A DNA stretch of 32,000 nucleotides from Trichlorobacter lovleyi SZ (GTDB lineage: Bacteria; Desulfobacterota; Desulfuromonadia; Geobacterales; Pseudopelobacteraceae). The DNA is taken from NCBI RefSeq assembly GCF_000020385.1, contig NC_010814.1:3090001-3122000 (forward strand). Reading direction: 5' to 3'. The notes below the pieces were generated by a model that searched no databases, was not told the origin of the DNA, and saw nothing but the letters and a program-made list of their open reading frames with translations. This document shows, piece by piece, positions 2,799 through 22,674 of this stretch. Both the position numbers and the translations under genes were made by a program. The first letter of the stretch is position 1. The number at the start of each line of letters is the position of its first letter.

Positions 2799-4543
2799 TG
2801 CGGTTTTTCCCTGTCCGCTCTACTGCTTTTCCAGATCGACACCAGCAACCATAGGCCACCTATCACCGCACCGGAGAAACCAAACAAAGCGAAAAATGAT
2901 AGCCCTATCAGACTGGGGCCACCGGTAACAGTCATTACTATGGAAGAGCCGATGATCAATGCAGCAACCACAATACCGACAACCAGCCGGTTGACAGCAC
3001 TATCAAGCTGATTGCCGACACGCTTCAAGTGCGTGACGTCAATGTGGATTTCCAGTCGGCCACGCCGTGCCGCGCGTAACAACCGTGATAAGTCCTGTGG
3101 CAAATCAGCGAGTAGCGAAAGAGCCTCGCCTGTTGCTTCCCAACTTCGTTTGATGATGGCGGACGGGGTGTGCCGAACACGCATTGCTTGTTCCAGCAAT
3201 GGCATGGCTTCACCAGCCATATCAAAGTTAGGATCCAGTTCGCGCCCCATCCCTTCAAGCGTAATGAAGGTTTTGACCAACAACGTAAGATCGGCCGGTA
3301 ACGTTAAATGATGCCGGCGGAGGATGGCCGCCAGATCAGAAAGCATGGTTCCTAGGCTTAAATGTTTCAGAGCCACACCATGATATTGATCCACGAACGA
3401 CTGAATTTCCAATTCAAGGGCACCCTCATCCACACTGCCATAGCTCGCCCAGTCAAGCATTACAGTAGTGACGCGCTCTGGCTTTTGTCGCACCAGCCCT
3501 AGCAACAGGCGGATCAGTTGATCACGACGCCCTTCGGAAAGCCTTCCTACCATACCAAAATCAATGATGGCAATCCGGTTTCCTGGCAGATAGAAGATAT
3601 TGCCGGAATGCGGATCAGCGTGAAAATAGCCATCCTCAACAATCATTTTAAGCACCGCGTGTGCACCTCGACGAGCAAGGACTTTGCGGTCAAGTCCGGC
3701 TTGATCGACTGCCTGAAGATCACGTCCCGGGATTCCTGTAATAAACTCCTGCACACAGATTCGCTCGCCGGTCCAGGTCCAATAAACTCGTGGGATTATG
3801 ATCTGGGGCAGTTCAGTCTCGCAGCTAGTATCTTTGCCGTCGGGATTGTTCTTATCGTGATACCCGGTAAAATTGTCTCTGATTCGCTCTGCATTGCGGC
3901 ACTCAACGGCAAAATCAAGTTCCTGTCGTAGTGACTGGGTAAACTGACTCACTACTTCTAGAGGGTGAAAGGCGCGCAATTCCTCACTTTCAGCTTCAGC
4001 AAGCTGTGCAAGCCTTGCTAACCAGCGCAGATCGGCTTCGATAATCGGACGGATACCGGGGCGACGCACCTTTACTATCACCTCGCTGCCGTCTTCCAAG
4101 CGGGCGCGGTGAACTTGGGCGATTGAGGCGGCCGCCAGCGGCTCGCGACTAAAGGCGGCAAACACCTCCTCGGGTTGAGCACCGAGGTCTTCAGTGAGCT
4201 GCCTGCGAACATCGTCCCAGGGGGCAGCGGGTGCACTGTCCTGCAGTTTGCTGAATTCGGCGATCCATTCCGGTTCAAACAGATCCACGCGGGTGGCGAG
4301 TACCTGACCGAGCTTGACGAAGGTCGGCCCCATCTCCTCCAACGCCAGGCGCACCCGTTCGGGCGGCGGCACATGAGCGAATCCTTCCGCTTTATCCCAG
4401 TGCACCGCCCGCCCGGCTCGCTCCAGCGCATTGGCGAGCCCCATTCTTTGTACAAGGTCGCCGAAACCGTAGCGGATCAGGATCGATGCAATGTCTTGCA
4501 GTCTGCCAAGATCGCGCACTGCTGTCATCGCCTGCCACAGCAT
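2795..4543 (-). CDS. ABC1/UbiB-family atypical protein kinase with a C-terminal membrane anchor
   Basis: 582 aa. Motifs are ASIAQVHRA, HADPHSGNI and IDFGMVG, followed by two C-terminal hydrophobic helices. The stop overlaps the patatin start (ATGA at 2795-2798). Confidence 0.9.
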   Translation of the reverse strand: MLWQAMTAVRDLGRLQDIASILIRYGFGDLVQRMGLANALERAGRAVHWDKAEGFAHVPPPERVRLALEEMGPTFVKLGQVLATRVDLFEPEWIAEFSKLQDSAPAAPWDDVRRQLTEDLGAQPEEVFAAFSREPLAAASIAQVHRARLEDGSEVIVKVRRPGIRPIIEADLRWLARLAQLAEAESEELRAFHPLEVVSQFTQSLRQELDFAVECRNAERIRDNFTGYHDKNNPDGKDTSCETELPQIIIPRVYWTWTGERICVQEFITGIPGRDLQAVDQAGLDRKVLARRGAHAVLKMIVEDGYFHADPHSGNIFYLPGNRIAIIDFGMVGRLSEGRRDQLIRLLLGLVRQKPERVTTVMLDWASYGSVDEGALELEIQSFVDQYHGVALKHLSLGTMLSDLAAILRRHHLTLPADLTLLVKTFITLEGMGRELDPNFDMAGEAMPLLEQAMRVRHTPSAIIKRSWEATGEALSLLADLPQDLSRLLRAARRGRLEIHIDVTHLKRVGNQLDSAVNRLVVGIVVAALIIGSSIVMTVTGGPSLIGLSFFALFGFSGAVIGGLWLLVSIWKSSRADREKPQ

Positions 4544-10475: not shown

Positions 10476-11336
10476 TCAAGCGACTTGCTGCTGATTGTTG
10501 TAATTCTGTGCAAATATTGCCGGTGCAACATATCCAAGACGGGAATGGCGTCTTTGGCGGTTATAAAAGATCTCAATGTATTCCTGGATAGAAGCTTTTG
10601 CTTCATCTCTGGTTTCATAGCGGCAATGATGTACAAGTTCGTTTTTGAGGCTGCCCCAGAAGCTTTCCATCGGCGCATTATCATAGCAATTTCCTTTGCG
10701 TGACATGGATGTCTTCATTTTGAACTGCTTCAGAAGCTTTCTATAATCGTGAGCGCAGTATTGACTGCCGCGATCAGAATGATGAATCAACCCGGCAGCA
10801 GGTCGTTTTTGTTGTACCGCTCGAAAGAGAGCCCGGCCTGTCAACTCCTGCGTCATTCGTTTTGACATGGCGTAACCGACTATTTCGCGTGTAAAAACAT
10901 CCTTAACTCCAGCAAGGTAAAGCCAGCCTTCTCCTGTTGGGATGTAGGTGATATCGGTAACCCATACTTCGTTTGGTGCGCTTGGTGTAAAAGTTTGATC
11001 AAGAAGGTTCTCTGCCACAGGAAGATTGTGGTTTGAGTTCGTAGTTGCTTTAAACTTGCGCTTCTGCCGGCAGCGTAATCCCAATTCTCGTCGTAAGCGA
11101 GCGATGCGATCACGACCGACAATAAAGCCATCTGCTGCCAGTTCAGGTTGTAACCGTTTCGCGCTGTAACTCTCACGAGTACGTGTATGCGCTACCTTGA
11201 TTGCAACCTTGAGGCGCTCATCCTCCTGAGTCCGCCGTGACGGGTTTCTTTTTAACCACGCATAAAAGCCGCTACGGGACACATTAAACATACGGCTCAT
11301 AGTTACAGTAGGATAGTGGAGTCGCCATTTTTTCAT
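10476..11336 (-). CDS. IS3-family transposase OrfB (DDE integrase core)
   Basis: 286 aa. DDE-region motifs are WVTDITYI, HHSDRGSQY and ESFWGSLKNE, followed by YNRQRRHSRLGY. Confidence 0.9.
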   Translation of the reverse strand: MKKWRLHYPTVTMSRMFNVSRSGFYAWLKRNPSRRTQEDERLKVAIKVAHTRTRESYSAKRLQPELAADGFIVGRDRIARLRRELGLRCRQKRKFKATTNSNHNLPVAENLLDQTFTPSAPNEVWVTDITYIPTGEGWLYLAGVKDVFTREIVGYAMSKRMTQELTGRALFRAVQQKRPAAGLIHHSDRGSQYCAHDYRKLLKQFKMKTSMSRKGNCYDNAPMESFWGSLKNELVHHCRYETRDEAKASIQEYIEIFYNRQRRHSRLGYVAPAIFAQNYNNQQQVA

Positions 11337-13522: not shown

Positions 13523-14842
13523 CTAGAGGCTTGTATTAAAGCGGCTTCGTACGCTTTTCATTCCATTGAATACGGAGTTGGCAACTTCTTCCGGAAAACC
13601 CTGTGGCAAAATGCTTTGCACATGCTCAATAACATCATCCATCTGGCCAAACAAATTCTTAACAATTGACTCCATCTCATCCGCAGGAAAACCGCAGGCT
13701 TTTGCAGTAGACAGCCAATGCCGGAGTTGTATTTTTTGCCACTGGTAATGGGTACTTTTCCCTCTGACAGCCATTGCCATTTTCATTTTTTGTGGTTCCA
13801 CCAACCTTTTCTCCACGAGCGGATAGGCAGACATGACATCATAGAATGGGGCAAGTTGAAAACTACCCTCCGGCAGCAGGAAGATGCTGAAGTTCTTTGC
13901 ATGACCATCGATGGCGCCAAGTAGCCAGAACAGCACCTGGGTCTTGAGAAACAGGCTGCGATCCGCCAGCGCGTTCACCGACCCCAGAAGCAGGGCCATG
14001 ATGCGCTGAATGCCCGGTCCGCCATCGCTTTCGTATTTCAAGGCCGGTGATATGTTCAGCGCCTGACACATATCTTCTTGCGGCAAACGGATCAACCAGG
14101 AACGGTCGTCGGCCCACCTGCGATCAAATCGTTCCACTACCAGAACCTTTACATCCTCGAACGTTGCTATATCAGCATTGGCGACTGGGATACCGTATGC
14201 CTTGAGAATAAGATGACAAAGCCATTCGTTCTCCACGCTGTCGGTCAGATCCATGCCACTATGAGCAATCTTGCCGATTGGAAGTTTGAATATGTGGCTG
14301 GTCGGTGTGACACCCAGGGGGCGATGCCACTTGTCATTCAAGCGCAGCAGCGCAGTCTTCTCCTGTGCTCCGGCTATCGAGATGCGAAAATCATTATCTC
14401 CCTGCATGCCGAGTGGCAGGGTTGCGTAGTTGCGCAACAACCCCGCGATCTGTGAATCTGTAAGCACCTCGGATTCAATCCGGCGCACATCAACTTCAGC
14501 AGCATCTTCTGGAAGAAGCTGGAGCGCTCCGACGCAATCCCGTCCAACGTGCCAGAGAAGATCAAAACAGCGATTACTCTTTGCTCCGAATCGAGCCTGA
14601 ATTCTGCTGCGTATTGATTGGCTGTCCGGCAGCAGGTTGTCAAAAAAGTTTTCTACCACATCACCGCTGAAAATCTTTTGACTGAGCGGCATCGAGAGTG
14701 ATAACGGTCGCCTGAATGCAGAATGCAGCCATTCGTCACCGTACTCAAAACGAAGCTGTCCAACTGCGGTCCGAGTCAGACATCCTACTTTTTTGCCGTT
14801 CATAAAGAGGTGCAGGTCAGCTGTTATTTTTGGTCGGGCCAT
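13523..14842 (-). CDS. hipA: Type II toxin HipA-family serine/threonine kinase
   Basis: 439 aa. The N-terminus parallels E. coli HipA (RPLSLSMPL...FFDNLLPDS...FDLLWHVGRDCVGALQLLPED). The C-terminal kinase core has IAGAQEK and DGHAKNFS. Confidence 0.92.
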   Translation of the reverse strand: MARPKITADLHLFMNGKKVGCLTRTAVGQLRFEYGDEWLHSAFRRPLSLSMPLSQKIFSGDVVENFFDNLLPDSQSIRSRIQARFGAKSNRCFDLLWHVGRDCVGALQLLPEDAAEVDVRRIESEVLTDSQIAGLLRNYATLPLGMQGDNDFRISIAGAQEKTALLRLNDKWHRPLGVTPTSHIFKLPIGKIAHSGMDLTDSVENEWLCHLILKAYGIPVANADIATFEDVKVLVVERFDRRWADDRSWLIRLPQEDMCQALNISPALKYESDGGPGIQRIMALLLGSVNALADRSLFLKTQVLFWLLGAIDGHAKNFSIFLLPEGSFQLAPFYDVMSAYPLVEKRLVEPQKMKMAMAVRGKSTHYQWQKIQLRHWLSTAKACGFPADEMESIVKNLFGQMDDVIEHVQSILPQGFPEEVANSVFNGMKSVRSRFNTSL

Positions 14843-15094
14843 TTACCACTGGTCTCCCGTATTTTCAAAGGTAGGCTTCTGACGAGGTTGAATAGTTAAT
14901 TCAAGGTCTAAAGCGGCGAGCAGTCGAAAAAGTGTGTTTAGTTCAGTGCCAGGGTTTCCTTTTTCGATTTTAGAAATCGTGTGTTGCTCCATGCCTACAG
15001 AATGGCCGACGACTTTCTGCGACATTCCCTTGTTTTTGCGTTCAGCTCGCAACGCTTGGCCAAGGGTTTCTGGTGAGCTGATTTTATGAACCAT
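14843..15094 (-). CDS. hipB: HipB-like XRE-family HTH antitoxin
   Basis: 83 aa (LGQALRAERKNKGMSQKVVGHSVGMEQHTISKIEKGN). Its TAA directly abuts the hipA ATG (TAAATG). Confidence 0.9.
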   Translation of the reverse strand: MVHKISSPETLGQALRAERKNKGMSQKVVGHSVGMEQHTISKIEKGNPGTELNTLFRLLAALDLELTIQPRQKPTFENTGDQW

Positions 15095-15281: not shown

Positions 15282-15600
15282 GCAGTTGGAGCAGTTGAGG
15301 CAGTTGAGGCAGTTGAGGCAGTTGGAGCAGTTGAGGCAGTTGAGGCAGTTGAGGCAGTTGAGGCAGTTGAGGCAGTTGAGGCAGTTGAGGCAGTTGAGGC
15401 AGTTGAGGCAGTTGAGGCAGTTGAGGCAGTTGAGGCAGTTGAGGCAGTCGAGGCAGTCGAGGCAGTCGAGGCAGTTGAGGCAGTTGAGGCAGTTGAGGCA
15501 GTTGAGGCAGTTGAGGCAGTTGAGGCAGTTGAGGCAGTTGAGGCAGTTGAGGCAGTCGAGGCAGTCGAGGCAGTCGAGGCAGTCGAGGCAGTCGAGGCAG
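15282..15600. repeat. Minisatellite: 35 head-to-tail copies of a 9-bp unit GCAGTYGAG plus a partial unit
   Basis: Counted directly. Units 1 and 5 are GCAGTTGGA. Units 2-4, 6-18 and 22-30 are GCAGTTGAG. Units 19-21 and 31-35 are GCAGTCGAG. A final GCAG follows, and there are no spacers. Confidence 0.97.
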
Positions 15601-15707
15601 AAAAACGATTTTGATGAATTTTTACGATTCGGGTTGCATTCAAAAATTGAATTTTAGTTTTTTAAATTCGTGCCATCAATTTTTGAGATAAACAGTTTTT
15701 AAATGAT

Positions 15708-16553
15708 TTAAAGATTTGAACAATGAAGAAATGCTTTCTCTAAAATGCAGTGTTTATGGGGTTTAATGGTATTTTTTGAATTTTCTTGTAATATATTTTT
15801 CAATTTTGCCAAGGTTGAAGTCGCGAGTTCGAATCTCGTTATGTCGCAGGTCTGATCGAGGTTTTCAATGATCCGGTCAAAGCTGCCTTTACCGCTTACG
15901 AACGGACGTTGCAGATTATGAACATCCGGTGGCCCGTCAATGGTAAAGCGGACCGAGACAAAGCCCAGCTCCTTGAGTTCCTGCGCCACCTCACGGGTCA
16001 ACAGCGTGGCGTTACTGACCAGATTGAAAGAGGCTTGCGTGCCTGCCTCAGAAGCCTTATGCCGCACACGAGCGGCAATATCCTTCATCATTGTCAGGGA
16101 AAGCAGCGCCTCGCCTCCGTAGAAGTCCAGCGTGACATCCAGCCCCCGTTCAATCTGTGCAGAGACGTACTGCACCAGCAGGTCGGCGGTCTCTGGCGTC
16201 ATATAGCGCTTGCCCCTGAAATGATCCTCATAGCAGTAACCGCAGGCCAGATTGCAGTCCAGGTTCATGGTAACCAGGGCGGTAAACTGCCTGCTGCGGC
16301 GATTGCCCTCCTCAAACAGGGTCCGCATCTGCTCCTGTTCAGCCAGCCGGTCAGGGACCAGAACACCTATTTTTGCCAACAGGGCCTGTTCCTGATCAGA
16401 AAGTTTCTGGTCCCGGGCATCGGCCAGAACCGAGCTGTCAAGTTTTACAATGGCGCCACGGGCCGTTGAATAGACCAGCAGCTTGCCGGGCTCATGGGCG
16501 TAGGAATAGGTTTTAAGGTAGATTGAAAGTTCCAAGATGTACTCCGAGACCAT
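15708..16553 (-). pseudogene. Radical SAM peptide-maturase-like gene, 3'-truncated (SPASM/C-terminal domain missing)
   Basis: It has the CX3CX2C cluster CNLACGYC and the GGEALL motif. My preferred start is the ATG at 16553 (MVSEYILELSIYLKTYSYAHEPGKLLVYSTARG). Native-looking sequence stops at about 15850 (...FDRIIENLDQ), after ~234 codons. The last ~47 codons are read from the tRNA fragment and ~25% GC DNA. Confidence 0.7.
15801..15840 (+). pseudogene. Internal fragment of a tRNA-Gly(GCC) gene (anticodon stem-loop, variable loop and T-arm; no D-arm and no acceptor stem)
   Basis: The sequence is CAATT-TTGCCAA-GGTTG-AAGTC-GCGAG-TTCGAAT-CTCGT. From the anticodon loop on, it matches 31 of 35 nt of E. 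coli tRNA-Gly(GCC) as I remember it (TTGCCAAGGTCGGGGTCGCGAGTTCGAGTCTCGTT). Upstream is AT-rich non-tRNA sequence. Downstream runs straight into rSAM coding sequence. Confidence 0.6.
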
Positions 16554-16576
16554 CAGGGGGATACACCCCCCTGATG
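16551..16576 (-). promoter_or_regulatory. Perfect GC-rich hairpin (10-bp stem, 6-nt loop) between the small ORF and the rSAM gene
   Basis: CATCAGGGGG-ATACAC-CCCCCTGATG on the + strand. On the mRNA, the 3' arm ends in the AUG proposed as the rSAM start. Confidence 0.55.
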
Positions 16577-16591
16577 GCAGCCAGACTGGTC

Positions 16592-16687
16592 TTACCGGAC
16601 AAGAGACATAGCGGTGAAGCAGCAGCTGTAGGTCGGGATGTCGATGAATGAACATGATCCCTGCTCAAGAACGTCGATTCGCTCCAT
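16592..16687 (-). CDS. 31-aa Cys-containing peptide, a candidate RiPP precursor (geopeptide-like)
   Basis: Absent from the track (<60 aa). AAGGAGGT (16702-16695) lies 7 nt upstream of the ATG. The product is MERIDVLEQGSCSFIDIPTYSCCFTAMSLVR, ending in TAA. It sits immediately upstream of the rSAM gene and is co-oriented with it. Confidence 0.6.
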   Translation of the reverse strand: MERIDVLEQGSCSFIDIPTYSCCFTAMSLVR

Positions 16688-16743
16688 GGTCGTTACCTCC
16701 TTTCTTTGTGTTGGTGCAAAACACCCTCTGGCATTGGACAGAC

Positions 16744-16759
16744 AGGCACGGATTCTGCT
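16744..16759 (+). promoter_or_regulatory. Candidate sigma-54 (-24/-12) promoter upstream of the TonB-dependent receptor operon
   Basis: aGGCACG-GATT-cTGCT compared with the consensus TGGCACG-N4-TTGCW, with correct GG-N10-GC spacing. The caveat is that the predicted transcription start is only ~8 nt before the ATG at 16778 and no SD is visible. Confidence 0.3.
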
Positions 16760-16777
16760 AGAGTGCTTGACTGACCC

Positions 16778-18607
16778 ATGGAAACCATTCTACGCCATAG
16801 CCTGAAGATACTGCTGCCCCTCTGGCTGCTCACGGCACCGCTTACGGCCGCTGCCGAGCCGGACGACAGCATCGGTCTGCTTGATGCCTGGCAGGGGGAG
16901 ACCGTCTCTGCCAGCCGCCTGCCCAAGCCGGTTTCCCATACCGCTGAAAACGTCACCGTGGTAACCGCCGCTGAGATCCAGTCCATTAACGCCCATACCC
17001 TGATCGATATCCTTGCCAACGTACCCGGCATGCAGCTTGAATCAACCAGAACATTAGGTGGGCTGATTTACTTCCGCTCCCAAGGCTCCTCTTTCAACCA
17101 CATTCTGGTGATGATTGACGGGGTGCCGTTCAACAACCTTGGCGACAACTTCAGCGATATCGGCCTGATCCCGGCCCGGATCATTGAGCGGGTCGAGATC
17201 GTCAAGGGTGCCGCCTCATCATCCTGGGGCCAGGCGCTGGGCGGGGTGATCAATGTCATCACCAAGACACCTGACCGGGAGAGAAGAAGCGGCGGCAGCC
17301 TGTCCAGCTCAGTTGGTGAACGGCGCACCAGTGACAGCGGTGCCGAACTATCCGGGAGCATTGAACGGTTCGGCTACTACCTCTCAGGTGGCTACAGCGG
17401 CTCCAAGGGTCTGCTTGCCAACAATCACGGAGATTATAGCAACGCCTATGCCAAGCTTGTGTACGACCTGCCGGGCAAGGGGCAGCTGGCCGGGACATTC
17501 GGCTACAGCCAGGCCAACCGCGGTGATTTTGCCTTTGCCCCGCTTGATCTGAAGGAAGAGACCTACCCCCGCCAGCTGTTCAGCACCCTTACACTGAGAA
17601 CAACACTAACTGATCAGCTTGAACTGGAGCTTAACGGGCGGCACGCCACAAGGGAGCTCGGCTTAGATATCGGCCTGATCAGCACCTACCTGCCGCTGCA
17701 AAGCTACAACATTGATGAGACCGTATCAGGGGTGGGTGCGAAACTGCTCTGGAGAACCAGCAGTAATCTCCTGGCCGTGGGGATTGAATACGACCATGTC
17801 TGGATGCGCTCAACCGACTCTATGGTCCATGTCGATACCCTGAACAGAAAAACCGACCGCTGGGGGTTTTACCTGAACGACACCCTGACCGTTGGCAACT
17901 TCTCATTCTCACCTGGCGTGCGGCTTGATCTGACCGGCACCTCCGGTGATCAGTTCAGCCCATCCTTCGGTATCACCTGGCAGCTGACCGACACCACGCT
18001 GCTGCGTGCCTATACGGCCAGAGGCTACAGCCTGCCGGCCTTTCTGCTGGATCGCACCTCAGAGAAGGTCTGGACGTCACAAATCGGTTTTGAAAGCACC
18101 ACCATACCGTATCTCTGGCTGAAAGGCACCCTGTTCCGTAATGACACCTGGGACATTGTCACCTACGACTCGTTTTCCAACAGCTTCAACCATGAACGCC
18201 ACCTCAAGCAGGGCTTTGAGGTGGAGGCAAAGACCGCCTCGCTGTTCAACACGTCGCTATCGGCAGGCTACGATTATATTGATGCCCGCAACACCTCAAC
18301 CCACCAGATCGTCCAGGATATCCCGCGGCATACGCTGCTGCTGGGCTTGCAGTACGATGACCGGCAGTACCTCAAGGGGGTACTGAACGGCCGCCATATC
18401 TGGTGGAATGCAGCCAGCTACCACAACGGCAGCTACCAGGGGGTGATCTGGGATCTGCACCTGACCGCCACGCCGTTCGGCCGCAAGCAGCACGCCCCGG
18501 AACTGTTCTTTTCCATCCGCAACATCTTTAACGGGTCGCAATATCTTGACGAGTTCTTCAAGAACGCCGGACGCTGGGTTGAAGGCGGCATGAGGATTTC
18601 GTTTTGA
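16778..18607 (+). CDS. TonB-dependent outer-membrane receptor
   Basis: 609 aa. It has a signal peptide (LLPLWLLTAPLTAAA) and a plug domain (VTVVTAAEIQSINAHTLIDILANVPGM...GVINVITK). It also has beta-barrel-type alternating sequence and a terminal aromatic (GGMRISF). Confidence 0.9.
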   Translation: METILRHSLKILLPLWLLTAPLTAAAEPDDSIGLLDAWQGETVSASRLPKPVSHTAENVTVVTAAEIQSINAHTLIDILANVPGMQLESTRTLGGLIYFRSQGSSFNHILVMIDGVPFNNLGDNFSDIGLIPARIIERVEIVKGAASSSWGQALGGVINVITKTPDRERRSGGSLSSSVGERRTSDSGAELSGSIERFGYYLSGGYSGSKGLLANNHGDYSNAYAKLVYDLPGKGQLAGTFGYSQANRGDFAFAPLDLKEETYPRQLFSTLTLRTTLTDQLELELNGRHATRELGLDIGLISTYLPLQSYNIDETVSGVGAKLLWRTSSNLLAVGIEYDHVWMRSTDSMVHVDTLNRKTDRWGFYLNDTLTVGNFSFSPGVRLDLTGTSGDQFSPSFGITWQLTDTTLLRAYTARGYSLPAFLLDRTSEKVWTSQIGFESTTIPYLWLKGTLFRNDTWDIVTYDSFSNSFNHERHLKQGFEVEAKTASLFNTSLSAGYDYIDARNTSTHQIVQDIPRHTLLLGLQYDDRQYLKGVLNGRHIWWNAASYHNGSYQGVIWDLHLTATPFGRKQHAPELFFSIRNIFNGSQYLDEFFKNAGRWVEGGMRISF

Positions 18608-18618
18608 GGCGATTGCAG

Positions 18619-19488
18619 ATGCTGATAGTTGTTTTAGGACTGCTGGCACTGCTACCGCTTAGTGTTGAGGCCTATGAGGTGCTGGTTCTGCAGAGCAGCC
18701 GGGCACCTGCCTATGACGAAGCCCTGAAGGGAATCAGGTCGGTACGCCGCTTCAGTGAGCGGTTACTGATACTGAGCGACTACATGGATGTTGACCTGCA
18801 ACGGATTGCCCGTGAAGATCGCCCTCTGTTGATTATCGCCCTGGGAGACAATGCGTATCTTTCTGCGAGTAAAATCAGACAGATACCGGTGGTGGTAGTG
18901 ATGGCCCCCAACTACCGGGGCGGTTCAGGGGGGCACCCTGCACTAACCGGTGTTGAGCTGCATCTGCCCCCTGAACGTTATCTGGCCGTCTTCAACACCA
19001 TGGGGCTGAAACGGGTTGGCATTATCGGTAACCCGGCAAAGAGTAGCCATTACATCCGTCTGATTCAGCAGTCCGCACCACGCTACGGTATTGAAGCTAT
19101 TGTGCGCGAGGTATCGTCCCCAAGGGAGGTCACGGGGCAACTTTCCTCGTTACGGGGAGAGGTTGACGCACTCTGGCTGCTACCCGACGATACGGCGGTC
19201 ACCAGAGAAACCACCGATGCCTACTTCCTGTTTTCCATGCAACAGCAGGTGCCGGTTGTGGCGTTTTCAAGCGCCTATCTGCAATCGGGTGCAGCAGTGG
19301 CAGTTGAAATACAGCGATACGATATTGGGCGTCAGGCCGGTGAAATAGTCACATCCCTGCTGGATGGCAATGATGTCTCAGGCCATCCGGCAGCATCTCC
19401 CCGCAAATCATCACTCAGGATCAATCCCACGGTACTGCACAGGCTGGGCTTATCGCCGGATAGCATTAGGGCAGGAAGCAGCCGATGA
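18619..19488 (+). CDS. Periplasmic ABC-type substrate-binding-like protein (ABC_sub_bind/PF04392-like)
   Basis: The track ORF starts at TTG 18604, overlapping the receptor stop. I prefer ATG 18619 (MLIVVLGLLALLPLSVEA signal peptide, GAGG 9 nt upstream). The VLVLQSSRAPAYDEALKGI pattern is typical of the family, from memory. Confidence 0.7.
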   Translation: MLIVVLGLLALLPLSVEAYEVLVLQSSRAPAYDEALKGIRSVRRFSERLLILSDYMDVDLQRIAREDRPLLIIALGDNAYLSASKIRQIPVVVVMAPNYRGGSGGHPALTGVELHLPPERYLAVFNTMGLKRVGIIGNPAKSSHYIRLIQQSAPRYGIEAIVREVSSPREVTGQLSSLRGEVDALWLLPDDTAVTRETTDAYFLFSMQQQVPVVAFSSAYLQSGAAVAVEIQRYDIGRQAGEIVTSLLDGNDVSGHPAASPRKSSLRINPTVLHRLGLSPDSIRAGSSR

Positions 19489-21071
19489 GCCGGCTCAATC
19501 AAATCAAACAGTTTCTGGGCAGTTTCCAGAGCAGGATTTTTATTGCGTTTACGCTCTTGACTCTGTTGATTGCCATCGCATTCATGATCATAATGGCCAA
19601 CAACGAGATACAGAATTATCGTCAAAGGTCCCGGGAAAAGGCTCGTTTGCTGGCCACCATACTGGCAGACAGCGTCAAACTGCCATTATTCTCAGGAGAT
19701 GTGGCGACGCTTAAGACTCTGGCTGATACATTGCTTGAAACACCTCAAGTAGCTCATGTAGTGATCGCAGACCATGACCAGCGTGTCCTGGTCGAACGTT
19801 TTTCAAAATATATTCACAGCCCCCCCTCAGACATGACAACCGAGGGGATGCCGGTACACGCAACAGCTTCAACGCCTTCAGTGGATTCGGCACTTTCTGG
19901 CGGCCCTGCAACCCAGTCTCCTCCATTCGGTTCAGTGCGTGTCTCTATCGACACCAGAGATCTGAAGCTCTCCATCAGGAACACGCTGTTCAAGACCGGA
20001 GCAGTTGTGCTGGTGTTCTGGCTTGCCGTGCTTGCGGCAACCTACCCCATACTCAAACGGATCACCAGGTCATTTGACGTACTTACTCAAGGGTTGGGAA
20101 CTATGATGGAGGGAGACTTTTCCCTGAAGATTCCGGTGGAAAGTGACGATGAAGCCGGACGTGCCACACAGGCGGTCAACCGTCTGGCATCTGCACTGGA
20201 AGAACGCGAGACGGAAAACCGGAATCTGCAGGCTGAACTCGTGAACGCGTTGCAACTTGAAATACAGGAAGAAAAGCGCAAGTTCATGGCCAAGATGATC
20301 CAGACAAACCGGATGACGTCGCTGGGGTTGCTTATCTCCAGCATGGCACACAACATCAATACACCGAATGGCGCCATAAAACTGGCAGGGCACTACATTC
20401 AACGCTCCTGGAAAGACCTACTGCCAATCCTCGAAGGCGTGACAAAAGATGAAGGGGATTTTCAGGTTGGCGGGTTGCAGTTCAGTGAAGCCAAAACCGA
20501 GTTTTCGAGTGCCGCTGAGTCCATCTGCCGTAACGCAGAACGGGTTGAGCGGGTAATCCACGATCTGCGCGCCTACAATGTGGGGGAGCGCAGCGCCTTT
20601 GCCCCCGGGGTGTCGGTCAACCAGGCTGTGGAGGGGGCTTTAACCATTGTGCGCGCCCATGGCAGTCAGGCCCAGGTAAAGATCGTACACCGGCTTGACC
20701 CGGCTCTCCCGACCATTACCGGCAACCAAAACCAGATTGAGCAGGTGGTCGTGAACCTCTTGCTGAATGCCATGCAGGCAACACCCGGCAACGCTGAGGG
20801 GATCACGATTACAACCTGCCATATCCCGCTGCAGCATGAGATCCAGATTATCGTTATGGACGAAGGAGAGGGACTGCCCGAACTGGTTGCACAGAACCTG
20901 TTCAAACCATTCACCTCCACACGGATCGACAAGGGAGGCAGTGGCCTGGGCCTCTACATCTCCAACTTCATCATAACCGAACACAAAGGCAGGATTGAGT
21001 TCAGCTCAAACAGCCCCCAAGGAACCATTGTGACCGTATGCCTGCCGGTTATCCCCGCCGGTGACTGCTAA
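19485..21071 (+). CDS. Sensor histidine kinase (2 TM, ~150-aa extracytoplasmic domain, HAMP, DHp, HATPase)
   Basis: 528 aa. It has the H-box SSMAHNINTPNG, the N-box VVNLLLNAMQA and the G-boxes DEGEG and GGSGLGLYIS. The ATG overlaps the upstream TGA (ATGA at 19485-19488). Confidence 0.9.
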   Translation: MSRLNQIKQFLGSFQSRIFIAFTLLTLLIAIAFMIIMANNEIQNYRQRSREKARLLATILADSVKLPLFSGDVATLKTLADTLLETPQVAHVVIADHDQRVLVERFSKYIHSPPSDMTTEGMPVHATASTPSVDSALSGGPATQSPPFGSVRVSIDTRDLKLSIRNTLFKTGAVVLVFWLAVLAATYPILKRITRSFDVLTQGLGTMMEGDFSLKIPVESDDEAGRATQAVNRLASALEERETENRNLQAELVNALQLEIQEEKRKFMAKMIQTNRMTSLGLLISSMAHNINTPNGAIKLAGHYIQRSWKDLLPILEGVTKDEGDFQVGGLQFSEAKTEFSSAAESICRNAERVERVIHDLRAYNVGERSAFAPGVSVNQAVEGALTIVRAHGSQAQVKIVHRLDPALPTITGNQNQIEQVVVNLLLNAMQATPGNAEGITITTCHIPLQHEIQIIVMDEGEGLPELVAQNLFKPFTSTRIDKGGSGLGLYISNFIITEHKGRIEFSSNSPQGTIVTVCLPVIPAGDC

Positions 21072-22513
21072 GACTTTGCGCCGGACCACTTCCTGCTGTC
21101 ACACAGATCGAGCTTCTTCTGCAGCGTCGGCCTGCTGACCCCCAGCAGTTCGGCAGCGGCACTGCGGTTACCGTTCGCCTCTTCAATGGCTTCTTCGGTC
21201 AGAAGCAGTTCCAGCTCTTCATAGGTTGGAAACTCTGAAAAGATTCCATGCAACACAAACTGGTTACTGCCGATCCGGCGGATCATGTTGTTAAGGCCGC
21301 CACAACCGGTTGACAACCCGGGGAAATCATCAAGTTGCAGGGTACCGGAACGGTTATTGGTAACCGCGTTATTAATCTTGTTGATCAACTCCCTGACGTT
21401 GCCGTGAAAATCATAACACCTGAGCGACTTACGCACCTCACGCGAAAACCGTGGGATCGCCTTTTTCAGCTCTTGCGCTATGCGGGCAGCATAATGCTCC
21501 GCCAAGGGCAGGATATCTTCGCGGCGGTCACGCAGTGGCGGGACATGCAGGGAATGGGCGCTGATCCGGTAGTAGAGATCCTGCCGGAAGGAACCGGACT
21601 CAAAGAGGGCCTCAAAATTGGCGTTTGAAGCGGCAATGATGCGGGCACTGCTTTTTTGCAGCACATCGGAACCAACGCGGTAATATTCATTCTGTTGAAT
21701 AAGCCGGAGCAGCTTAACCTGTGACTGGACACTGATCTCGCCGATCTCGTCCAGAAAAAGTGTGCCGTCTTTTGCCTTTTCAATCAACCCCTCCCGGCTT
21801 TCGGTAGCGCCGGTGAACGCCCCTTTTTTGTGGCCAAAGAGAGAATCAGAGAACATGCTGTCATCCAGCCCGGCAACATTAACAGTTACCATGGGCCCCC
21901 TCAGACCGCTGGAGCGGTGAATGGCCTTGGCGATCAGCTCCTTGCCGACTCCGGTCTCACCGGTAATCAGAACGGGCTGTCTTGAGTGGCGCATGGCTTC
22001 AATAATCTTGAAAAGCGACTGCATCCGGTCACTACAGCTGATGATATCACTGAAGCATTCCGGATCTTCAAGGGGCTGCCCTTGCAGGTATCCTGTCAGC
22101 TTCTTGTTCTGACTGGCCAGTTCTTCCGTGGTAAAGGCCTTCTGAACAATAGAAACCAGACGGTTGGCGTCAAGGGGTTTGGTTATGTAGTCATAGGCCC
22201 CCTGCTTGATACAGCTGACCACATTCTCAAGATCAGCCACACCGGTCAGGATAATGACCGGCAGATAGGGATGCTGCCTGACTATCTCCGGCAGCAGGTC
22301 TGCACCGCTCAGACCGGGCATAACCCAATCGAGTATCAGTACGCTGTGCCCCCCCTCAGAGAGCTCCTGAAAAATTTTACTGCTGTCTTGCAAGGTTGTG
22401 ATGTTGGTTATCCCCTGGGTATGCAGGGTACGGCGGGCTTCTTCAAGGAATCCGGCATCATCATCAACCAGCAAGACTCCTTGTGCTTGTTTCGTTTGAG
22501 CAGGCTTCGACAT
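21068..22513 (-). CDS. Sigma-54-dependent response regulator (REC + AAA+ + Fis-type HTH; NtrC family)
   Basis: 481 aa. It has the receiver LILDWVMPGLSG, Walker A GETGVGKE, the GAFTGA motif, and a C-terminal HTH (NRSAAAELLGVSRPTLQKKL). AGGAGA lies upstream of the ATG. The 3' end overlaps the kinase 3' end by 4 nt (convergent). Confidence 0.93.
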   Translation of the reverse strand: MSKPAQTKQAQGVLLVDDDAGFLEEARRTLHTQGITNITTLQDSSKIFQELSEGGHSVLILDWVMPGLSGADLLPEIVRQHPYLPVIILTGVADLENVVSCIKQGAYDYITKPLDANRLVSIVQKAFTTEELASQNKKLTGYLQGQPLEDPECFSDIISCSDRMQSLFKIIEAMRHSRQPVLITGETGVGKELIAKAIHRSSGLRGPMVTVNVAGLDDSMFSDSLFGHKKGAFTGATESREGLIEKAKDGTLFLDEIGEISVQSQVKLLRLIQQNEYYRVGSDVLQKSSARIIAASNANFEALFESGSFRQDLYYRISAHSLHVPPLRDRREDILPLAEHYAARIAQELKKAIPRFSREVRKSLRCYDFHGNVRELINKINNAVTNNRSGTLQLDDFPGLSTGCGGLNNMIRRIGSNQFVLHGIFSEFPTYEELELLLTEEAIEEANGNRSAAAELLGVSRPTLQKKLDLCDSRKWSGAKS

Positions 22514-22674
22514 CTCGTTCTTCTCCTGAAGCTACAGCAGGTTATTGGGTGTTGAGTAACGTAGCAGAAGGCATGCCAAGATGTCAGACAGGTGTAAACT
22601 AAAAAGCAACAAGATGGCTACGTACCGTACCAGAACCACATGGGGAGATCAACGCTGCCACCTTCAGCAGAGAT

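Follow-up and report, generated by a model that had tools for sequence, protein, structure and literature searches.

Within the 32,000-nucleotide stretch of the Trichlorobacter lovleyi SZ chromosome analyzed here (the window), a precursor peptide gene is located on the minus strand at positions 16592..16687 (stop codon included), as deduced from the ORF listing, a profile search, and an alignment. Its reading frame begins with ATG and ends with the TAA at 16592-16594, and the Shine–Dalgarno sequence AAGGAGGT (16695..16702, minus strand) is positioned 7 nt 5' of the start codon. The encoded product of 31 amino acids, MERIDVLEQGSCSFIDIPTYSCCFTAMSLVR, features the leader IDVLEQG, the invariant residues G10, C22, and C23, and a tail of eight residues. 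The first-pass annotation of this DNA had described a 31-codon minus-strand ORF with a consensus Shine–Dalgarno site upstream of a radical SAM gene, and its translation was found to be exactly as claimed. The gene order that it had proposed, namely, a short Cys-containing peptide followed by a hairpin and then by a CX3CX2C radical SAM enzyme, could likewise be read at the locus in all its parts.

The hairpin is a GC-rich structure of 12 bp in the interval from the peptide stop codon to the start of the maturase gene (16549..16578, minus strand), and is conserved in the related loci L001 and L003. A folding energy of -33 kcal/mol was calculated for the 71-nt stretch around it (z = -2.85 versus shuffled sequences). 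In this genome, no T-run follows on its 3' side. Scans of the region 15600-16900 detected neither an intrinsic terminator nor a sigma-70 promoter for the peptide gene.

The truncated geopeptide radical SAM maturase, consisting of 275 amino acids (WP_167320577.1), is encoded at 15708..16535 on the minus strand. Divergent from the peptide gene, a TonB-dependent receptor of 609 amino acids, comparable to BtuB in size, is encoded at 16778..18607 on the plus strand, and was identified as WP_012470932.1/ACD96607.1 by exact look-up. It is followed on the same strand by the gene for a periplasmic binding protein of the PF04392 (ABC_sub_bind) family (18604..19488) and that for a membrane histidine kinase with two transmembrane segments, a HAMP domain, and a HATPase domain (19485..21071). 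An NtrC-type sigma-54-dependent response regulator (TIGR01818, E = 6e-104) is encoded at 21068..22513 on the minus strand. Regarding the PF04392 gene, the start codon was placed differently on near-identical DNA: the protein comprises 294 amino acids from the TTG at 18604 in the window and 289 amino acids on the conspecific contig L089 (3200-4069), and the exact 294-amino-acid form was absent from the protein collection.

Evidence for a Genuine Small Gene

To score the small ORFs of the window (20-60 amino acids), a profile HMM was derived from 28 peptides encoded upstream of the maturase at other loci, with the close relative L001 being excluded. Among the 323 small ORFs, the peptide ORF was the sole match (24.6 bits, E = 2.8e-7), and the runner-up reached 3.3 bits. 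Compared to L001, the DNA of the ORF is 64.6% identical, and 22 out of 31 residues are shared. Third codon positions hold 20 of the 34 base differences, and the 23 changed codons were distinguished into 14 synonymous and 9 nonsynonymous ones. Conservation of the frame in related genomes, proposed at first pass as a check on the ORF, was confirmed: the peptide frame is kept in L001, L003, and the conspecific genomes, and both alternative frames are interrupted by stop codons in L001. Furthermore, the ribosome-binding site, the ATG, the stop codon, and the hairpin all co-align across the window, L001, and L003.

Within T. lovleyi, six variants of the peptide were found, each being 31 amino acids long, with conservative changes confined to positions 11 and 24-29. 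No copy of these variants carried a name or an accession number in an exact look-up against a large protein collection, and a Pfam and NCBIfam domain search with the window peptide yielded no match. As judged from these sequence comparisons, the region 16592-16687 of the minus strand is a genuine, conserved small gene that has been left unannotated. Very probably, it encodes the precursor of a ribosomally synthesized and post-translationally modified peptide of the geopeptide kind, the partner of which is the truncated maturase of the TIGR04280 family.

Distribution and Conservation of the Peptide in Related Loci

A single fragment from the window used as the query in a genome contig scan recovered no relatives; an alignment of 18 full-length maturases recovered 40 further family loci in GTDB genomes. 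The DNA upstream of the maturase gene was readable in 42 related loci, and in 37 of these, a short ORF encoding a Cys-Cys pair immediately precedes the gene for this radical SAM enzyme, showing that the peptide and this enzyme family co-occur, as the initial reading of the locus had anticipated. The remaining five loci comprise one single-Cys variant and four cases with no peptide ORF within 450 bases. The single-Cys variant, MKKLVILSKGASVQKMAQAQANCAPGSPK, belongs to a member of the Desulfurivibrionaceae (L042, 3558-3647), and the loci with no peptide ORF up to 450 bases upstream of the maturase are L032, L033, L037, and L043.

In the nearest loci, L001 and L002, the maturase of which is 75% identical, the peptide MERIQILESGTASFIDTPTYSCCWTNMTLVR occupies the equivalent place, and in L003, it is MKKPILLVLEEGACPFMSGPDYACCYSNLGLFR. 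The common signature consists of a hydrophobic leader of the type (I/V)x(V/I)L-x-x-G, an invariant Gly, an invariant Cys-Cys pair, and a short tail; in an alignment of 23 peptide sequences, G10, C22, and C23 are invariant. Across 30 loci, all four Gly codons and, for each Cys, both codons are used, and the spacer between Gly and Cys-Cys measures 6-12 residues (11 in the window) and the tail 7-13 residues (8 in the window). This free choice of codons at the invariant positions, together with the constrained spacing, indicates that selection acts on the protein. The ORF varies between 27 and 46 amino acids in length across the loci, and a GGAGG-type site is found 6-9 nt 5' of the ATG in nearly all of the 30 loci checked. 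An aromatic residue following Cys-Cys is a feature of one clade only. The window peptide represents a divergent subfamily with the core motif F-x-x-x-P-x-Y-[SA]-C-C-[FWY].

Longer ORFs 5' of the maturase gene were observed in a member of the Thermodesulfovibrionales (L022, ~3605-3790) and in one of the Nitrospirae (L028, ~3601-3790). Both encode a K/A/T-rich N-terminus resembling a histone tail ahead of the Cys-Cys core (...AVAPKIACCRPSGIGYGVK and ...AEVAGAACCMGKPYVLK, respectively).

Relationship to the Curated Geopeptide Families

TIGR04229 is an NCBIfam equivalog model of 22 positions with a cut-off of 30 bits. Neither the window peptide nor its conspecific variants matched this model, even at E <= 10. 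Three other peptides reached 12-14 bits, and the peptide of Geotalea toluenoxydans, which belongs to the same alignment as the window peptide, passed the cut-off with 40.5 bits, which ties the peptide set to the curated geopeptide family. Regarding its position, the window peptide gene is located immediately 5' of a TIGR04280 gene on the same strand, and regarding its signature, it encodes the hydrophobic-VLxxG leader, the Cys-Cys pair, and the short tail.

The radical SAM protein of the window was recognized by TIGR04280 (E = 1e-87, 294-295 bits), with the match covering positions 2-240 of the 428 profile positions, and falls below the cut-off of 400 bits; it is a truncated member of the family, i.e., the product of a pseudogene. 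Intact orthologues achieved values between 544 and 624 bits; among these, the intact conspecific protein P0056 scored 623.9 bits, with its residues 1-426 aligning to profile positions 1-427. The CX3CX2C motif of the window protein reads CNLACGYC, and the radical SAM domain PF04055 was matched with E = 7e-16.

The suggestion made at first pass that the locus might hold a geopeptide and geopeptide maturase pair therefore stands for the enzyme, which is TIGR04280, and has to be modified for the peptide, which is no member of TIGR04229 by score, being instead a divergent relative. The restriction to Geobacter assumed there did not hold, since the system also occurs in metagenome-assembled genomes (MAGs) labelled Nitrospirota, Thermodesulfovibrionales, Desulfobulbales, and Desulfurivibrionaceae. 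The impression that the family is experimentally unexplored agrees with our search of the accessible literature, which retrieved no geopeptide paper and no experimental study of the geopeptide system. The curated peptide model misses an entire subfamily, the genes of which go unnamed.

The Maturase and Its Proposed Chemistry

By sequence, the nearest solved structure to the maturase is that of CteB (5wgg, E = 2e-31). In the AlphaFold structure predicted for the L001 orthologue (pLDDT 82), the radical SAM barrel and the SPASM domain are preceded by an N-terminal unit with the topology strand-strand-helix-helix-helix. The best fold matches of this model were the CteB chains (5why/5wgg), which were aligned over the full length (TM 0.69, 435 columns), and the second-best structural match was anSME. 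The next NCBIfam matches were maturases of Cys-rich peptides, ranthipeptides, and the PapB family, and cyclophane-forming, PQQ-type, and epimerase enzymes were also among the matches. The maturase is accordingly homologous to characterized thioether-forming radical SAM/SPASM enzymes, as expected for a sacti- or ranthipeptide system.

Based on this kinship, the enzyme is predicted to form one or two Cys-to-carbon thioether bridges at the Cys-Cys pair, as made by its nearest characterized relatives, CteB and PapB. We consider the chances of this prediction to be even, because conservation points to no fixed acceptor residue and because anSME-, cyclophane-, and PQQ-type enzymes are found among the relatives. 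A possible, somewhat doubtful alternative is that the peptide is a true precursor undergoing a different chemistry at Cys-Cys. Candidates are an oxidation of Cys to a formylglycine-like residue or a thioaldehyde (as in the case of anSME), a C-C cyclophane formed on the adjacent aromatic residue, an epimerization, or the excision of a small fragment that serves as a cofactor or binds metal (in the manner of PQQ or mycofactocin). The rank of anSME in the structural comparison and the enzyme types just named among the matches are in line with such a chemistry, as are the invariant residues, being Gly and Cys-Cys only, with no evident fixed thioether acceptor, and the linkage to a TonB-dependent receptor, which is typical of metallophores and cofactors. 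However, the thioether formers (CteB, PapB, and the Cys-rich peptide maturases) are the best matches in both sequence and fold, and the aromatic residue after Cys-Cys, being specific to one clade, is not general.

Loss of the Maturase C-Terminus in Strain SZ

In strain SZ, the maturase retains the N-terminal domain resembling peptide-binding domains and the CX3CX2C core, and is devoid of SPASM; by exact look-up, it was also found as ACD96606.1 (281 amino acids, T. lovleyi SZ, a species formerly placed in Geobacter). Alignment to the intact T. lovleyi loci assigned codons 1-231 (15841..16535, minus strand) to the native gene. The homology extends through ...CAGACCTGCGACAT up to base 15841, and positions 15708..15840 (minus strand) are foreign, AT-rich DNA contributing a read-through tail of 44 residues up to the first stop; the GC content of the region 15600-15899 is 0.32. 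The contig L089 is 99.3% identical to the window over 22687-15841, and encodes an identical peptide and an enzyme of 436 amino acids. A second conspecific locus, L090 (CP058409.1), is 90.6% identical down to base 15841 and encodes the peptide MERIDVLEQGSCSFIDIPTYSCCYVALTIVR together with the maturase WP_265551347.1. Other T. lovleyi genomes feature a protein of 430 amino acids that has been named "geopeptide radical SAM maturase" by NCBI.

In the intact protein P0056, the SPASM domain spans residues 324-403. The invariant cysteines of the family are located beyond the break, and all SPASM cysteines are lost in SZ. Auxiliary clusters are required for cross-linking, as established for AlbA, CteB, and related enzymes. 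Given this requirement and the loss of SPASM, the SZ locus cannot mature its own peptide. The lost half of the maturase was found nowhere else in the window by tblastn, which excludes a simple insertion of less than 15.8 kb. The assumption that the maturase is truncated and the locus dead for maturation in this genome was thereby substantiated: homology ends at 15841, and SPASM is absent from the window. A recent rearrangement has swapped everything past codon 231 for foreign AT-rich DNA and has left the precursor, receptor, and sensor genes intact.

The break looks recent and tied to mobile elements. A hipA/hipB-like toxin–antitoxin pair (13523-15094, minus strand) and an IS3-family transposase (10476-11336, minus strand) reside in lower-GC DNA of the window; on the same side of the break, L090 carries HepT/MNT, MORN, and rhomboid genes instead of the hipBA/IS3 DNA. 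The foreign DNA past the maturase also contains a tandem repeat of 9 bp, GCAGTTGAG, at 15282-15600 (35.4 copies, 97% matches), which is open in several frames, e.g., as (STA)n. At the breakpoint itself, a sub-threshold, tRNA-like 3' fragment was detected on the plus strand (15787..15847; Rfam tRNA 18.7 bits versus a gathering score of 29, E = 1.1), the T-arm of which (CGCGAGTTCGAATCTCG) abuts the junction 15841/15840. ARAGORN called no tRNA at the breakpoint, and it is speculative to see in the fragment what is left of the attachment site of an island. A split maturase was also noticed in a Geobacteraceae MAG (L004, 5001-6268), where it is represented by pieces of 300 and 107 amino acids; this is possibly a second broken maturase, the split being due to a frameshift or an assembly error.

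A Conserved Receptor and Sensor Neighborhood

Relatives of the neighboring genes were found near the maturase in the majority of the 46 non-duplicate loci (receptor, 40; binding protein, 39; kinase, 29), with varying orientations; NtrC-type sigma-54 regulators are often present in the related loci, too. The identity of the receptor tracks that of the maturase, decreasing from 78% in L001 to 54% in L003 and to ~30-35% in distant phyla. The module was found in Geobacterales/Desulfuromonadales, Nitrospirota, and Desulfobulbales. Clustering of all ORFs from the 46 loci revealed no conserved protease or exporter.

A sigma-54-type -24/-12 element, GGCACGGATTCTGCT, is located at 16745..16759 on the plus strand, where it faces the receptor operon, and its position is kept in L001/L002, L003, and L005. 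A second element of this type, GGCATGCCTTCTGCT, is found upstream of the regulator gene (22563..22577, minus strand). The sigma-54 pattern occurs four times in the window compared to 2.8 occurrences expected, which is no enrichment over chance, so that these two sites are supported by their position and conservation only. Together, they suggest an autoregulated circuit. The arrangement is different in L004, L014, L019, and L047, where such an element points toward the peptide gene.

Since the peptide–maturase pair is co-inherited with a TonB-dependent receptor, a binding protein, a kinase, and a sigma-54 regulator, the product would probably act outside the cytoplasm, and the module may take up and sense the mature peptide, either free or complexed with a metal. 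We put this reading forward tentatively, giving it somewhat less than even chances; the absence of a conserved exporter or leader protease from the neighborhood sits awkwardly with an extracellular role.

A different and unlikely account holds that the receptor, binding protein, kinase, and regulator sense an unrelated cue and merely switch on a peptide–maturase pair that works inside the cell. Apart from the missing conserved exporter and protease, it draws on the four loci in which the sigma-54-type element faces the peptide gene, and on the solved PF04392 relatives, which are listed only as solute-binding or uncharacterized proteins. Several PF04392 proteins have aromatic amino acids, not peptides, as their ligands. 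Two points argue against this account: the sigma-54 element in the clade of the window faces the receptor operon and not the peptide gene, and the tight co-inheritance of a dedicated receptor with the pair across phyla is explained most simply by a shared ligand.

Taking the uptake and sensing of the peptide one step further, the locus may represent a self-contained circuit, built on a peptide signal or a metallophore, of anaerobic bacteria that cycle metals and sulfur, in which strain SZ listens or scavenges without producing; in this full form, we regard the proposal as rather unlikely. In such a circuit, the modified Cys-Cys peptide would be released and taken up again through the TonB-dependent receptor, either alone or as a metal complex. 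The PF04392 protein would then bind the peptide and signal via the kinase and the sigma-54 regulator to the receptor operon.

Expression of the Intact Loci and the Start of the Maturase Gene

In intact loci, the strong ribosome-binding site would drive translation of the peptide, and the hairpin past its stop codon would reduce read-through into the maturase gene. Abundant precursor but scarce enzyme would result, the proportion of the two probably being adjusted by the hairpin. A stable GC hairpin is located just past the peptide stop in nearly all loci, and T-runs follow several of them. The leader strand (I/V)-x-V-L-x-x-G is envisaged to dock on the winged-helix-like N-terminal domain of the TIGR04280 enzyme, as deduced from its CteB-like fold, whereupon the 5'-deoxyadenosyl radical and the auxiliary clusters of SPASM would modify the core at Cys-Cys.

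The short ORF could, in principle, encode a trpL-like leader peptide, with stalling at the tandem Cys codons governing the formation of the downstream hairpin or terminator and thereby coupling the maturase to the cysteine supply. The invariant pair of identical residues, the nearly universal hairpin with its frequent T-run, and the ORF length of 27-46 amino acids, which is typical for attenuation leaders, resemble such an arrangement. We nevertheless consider it very unlikely: attenuators conserve regulatory codons only, whereas here, the leader motif and the Gly are conserved as amino acids with free codons and constrained spacing. Moreover, an enzyme that groups with peptide maturases and has a CteB-like N-terminal domain requires a peptide to act on, for which the neighborhood offers no other conserved candidate, and no alternative antiterminator pairing was seen.

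A GGAG ribosome-binding site (16542..16545, minus strand) is located 6 nt 5' of the maturase TTG, and the succession of GGAG/GAGG, a spacing of 6-8 nt, and TTG is kept in L001 and L003. The intact conspecific protein starts with MELSIYLKTY at the TTG equivalent to 16535. The true start of the maturase is the TTG at 16535 and not position 16655. An N-terminal extension from 16655 was also considered and rejected, its frame being interrupted by stop codons in two related loci (L001 and L003) and in the conspecific L090. The notion that the region encodes this extension (MFIHRHPDLQ...) and that the 31-codon ORF is open by chance, rated at first pass as the weaker of two competing readings, can be dismissed: the ATG at 16655 does open an ORF of 315 amino acids in this genome, and the long form has been chosen by gene callers for some contigs (P0052 and P0054), but besides these stops, the long ORF enters the TIGR04280 alignment only at its residue 42, residues 1-426 of the intact TTG-initiated protein already cover the profile positions 1-427, and the extension would have to be translated through the hairpin.

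Significance of the Locus

The locus is a known NCBIfam geopeptide system, and its value lies mainly in the missed peptide subfamily, the conserved partnership with the receptor and sensor genes, and the maturase-null strain with its intact sister strains. Geopeptides represent a named, experimentally untouched family of ribosomal peptides, which is now directly testable. Their spread far beyond Geobacter and the fixed receptor and sensor partners point to extracellular signaling or metal handling rather than to an antibiotic. A natural experiment is also offered by the cultured strain SZ, which possesses no working maturase at this locus, in comparison to strains that are 90-99% identical at the locus and carry an intact one. 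If the proposed circuit were true, SZ would be a natural maturase-null strain in which the precursor, the receptor, and the sensor are kept and which could use the product of its neighbors. If the locus turned out to be ordinary, the annotation would still be improved by adding the small gene, labeling the maturase as a pseudogene, and correcting its start codon.

Comparison with Known Systems

The geopeptides of TIGR04229 and TIGR04280 were named from their genome context, and the window peptide resembles them in position, size, the VLxxG leader, and Cys-Cys. It differs from TIGR04229 by its longer spacer between Gly and Cys-Cys (11 residues), the clade-specific F-x-x-x-P-x-Y, and the aromatic residue after Cys-Cys, and its maturase differs from the TIGR04280 members in being a remnant of 231 codons.

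With CteB/thermocellin and PapB/freyrasin, the locus shares a short Cys-containing precursor and the gene order from precursor to maturase. However, the match of CteB to this maturase amounts to only ~22% identity, a single Cys-Cys pair takes the place of the several spaced Cys residues of the CteB and PapB substrates, and the host is Gram-negative, with receptor and sensor genes in the neighborhood instead of those for ABC exporters or proteases.

Methanobactin is a peptide-derived copper chelator, the uptake of which proceeds via the TonB-dependent MbnT together with the periplasmic binding protein MbnE. PQQ is made from PqqA with the participation of PqqE, and is imported by the TonB-dependent PqqU. 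The geopeptide module is similar to these two in combining the processed product of a small ribosomal peptide with a TonB-dependent receptor and a periplasmic binding protein. In contrast, methanobactin is modified by MbnBC and not by a radical SAM enzyme, the window peptide has no sequence relation to PqqA or MbnA, and the geopeptide module has no exporter and includes a histidine kinase and a sigma-54 regulator. By analogy with methanobactin and PQQ, one might conjecture a metal or cofactor role for the geopeptide module.
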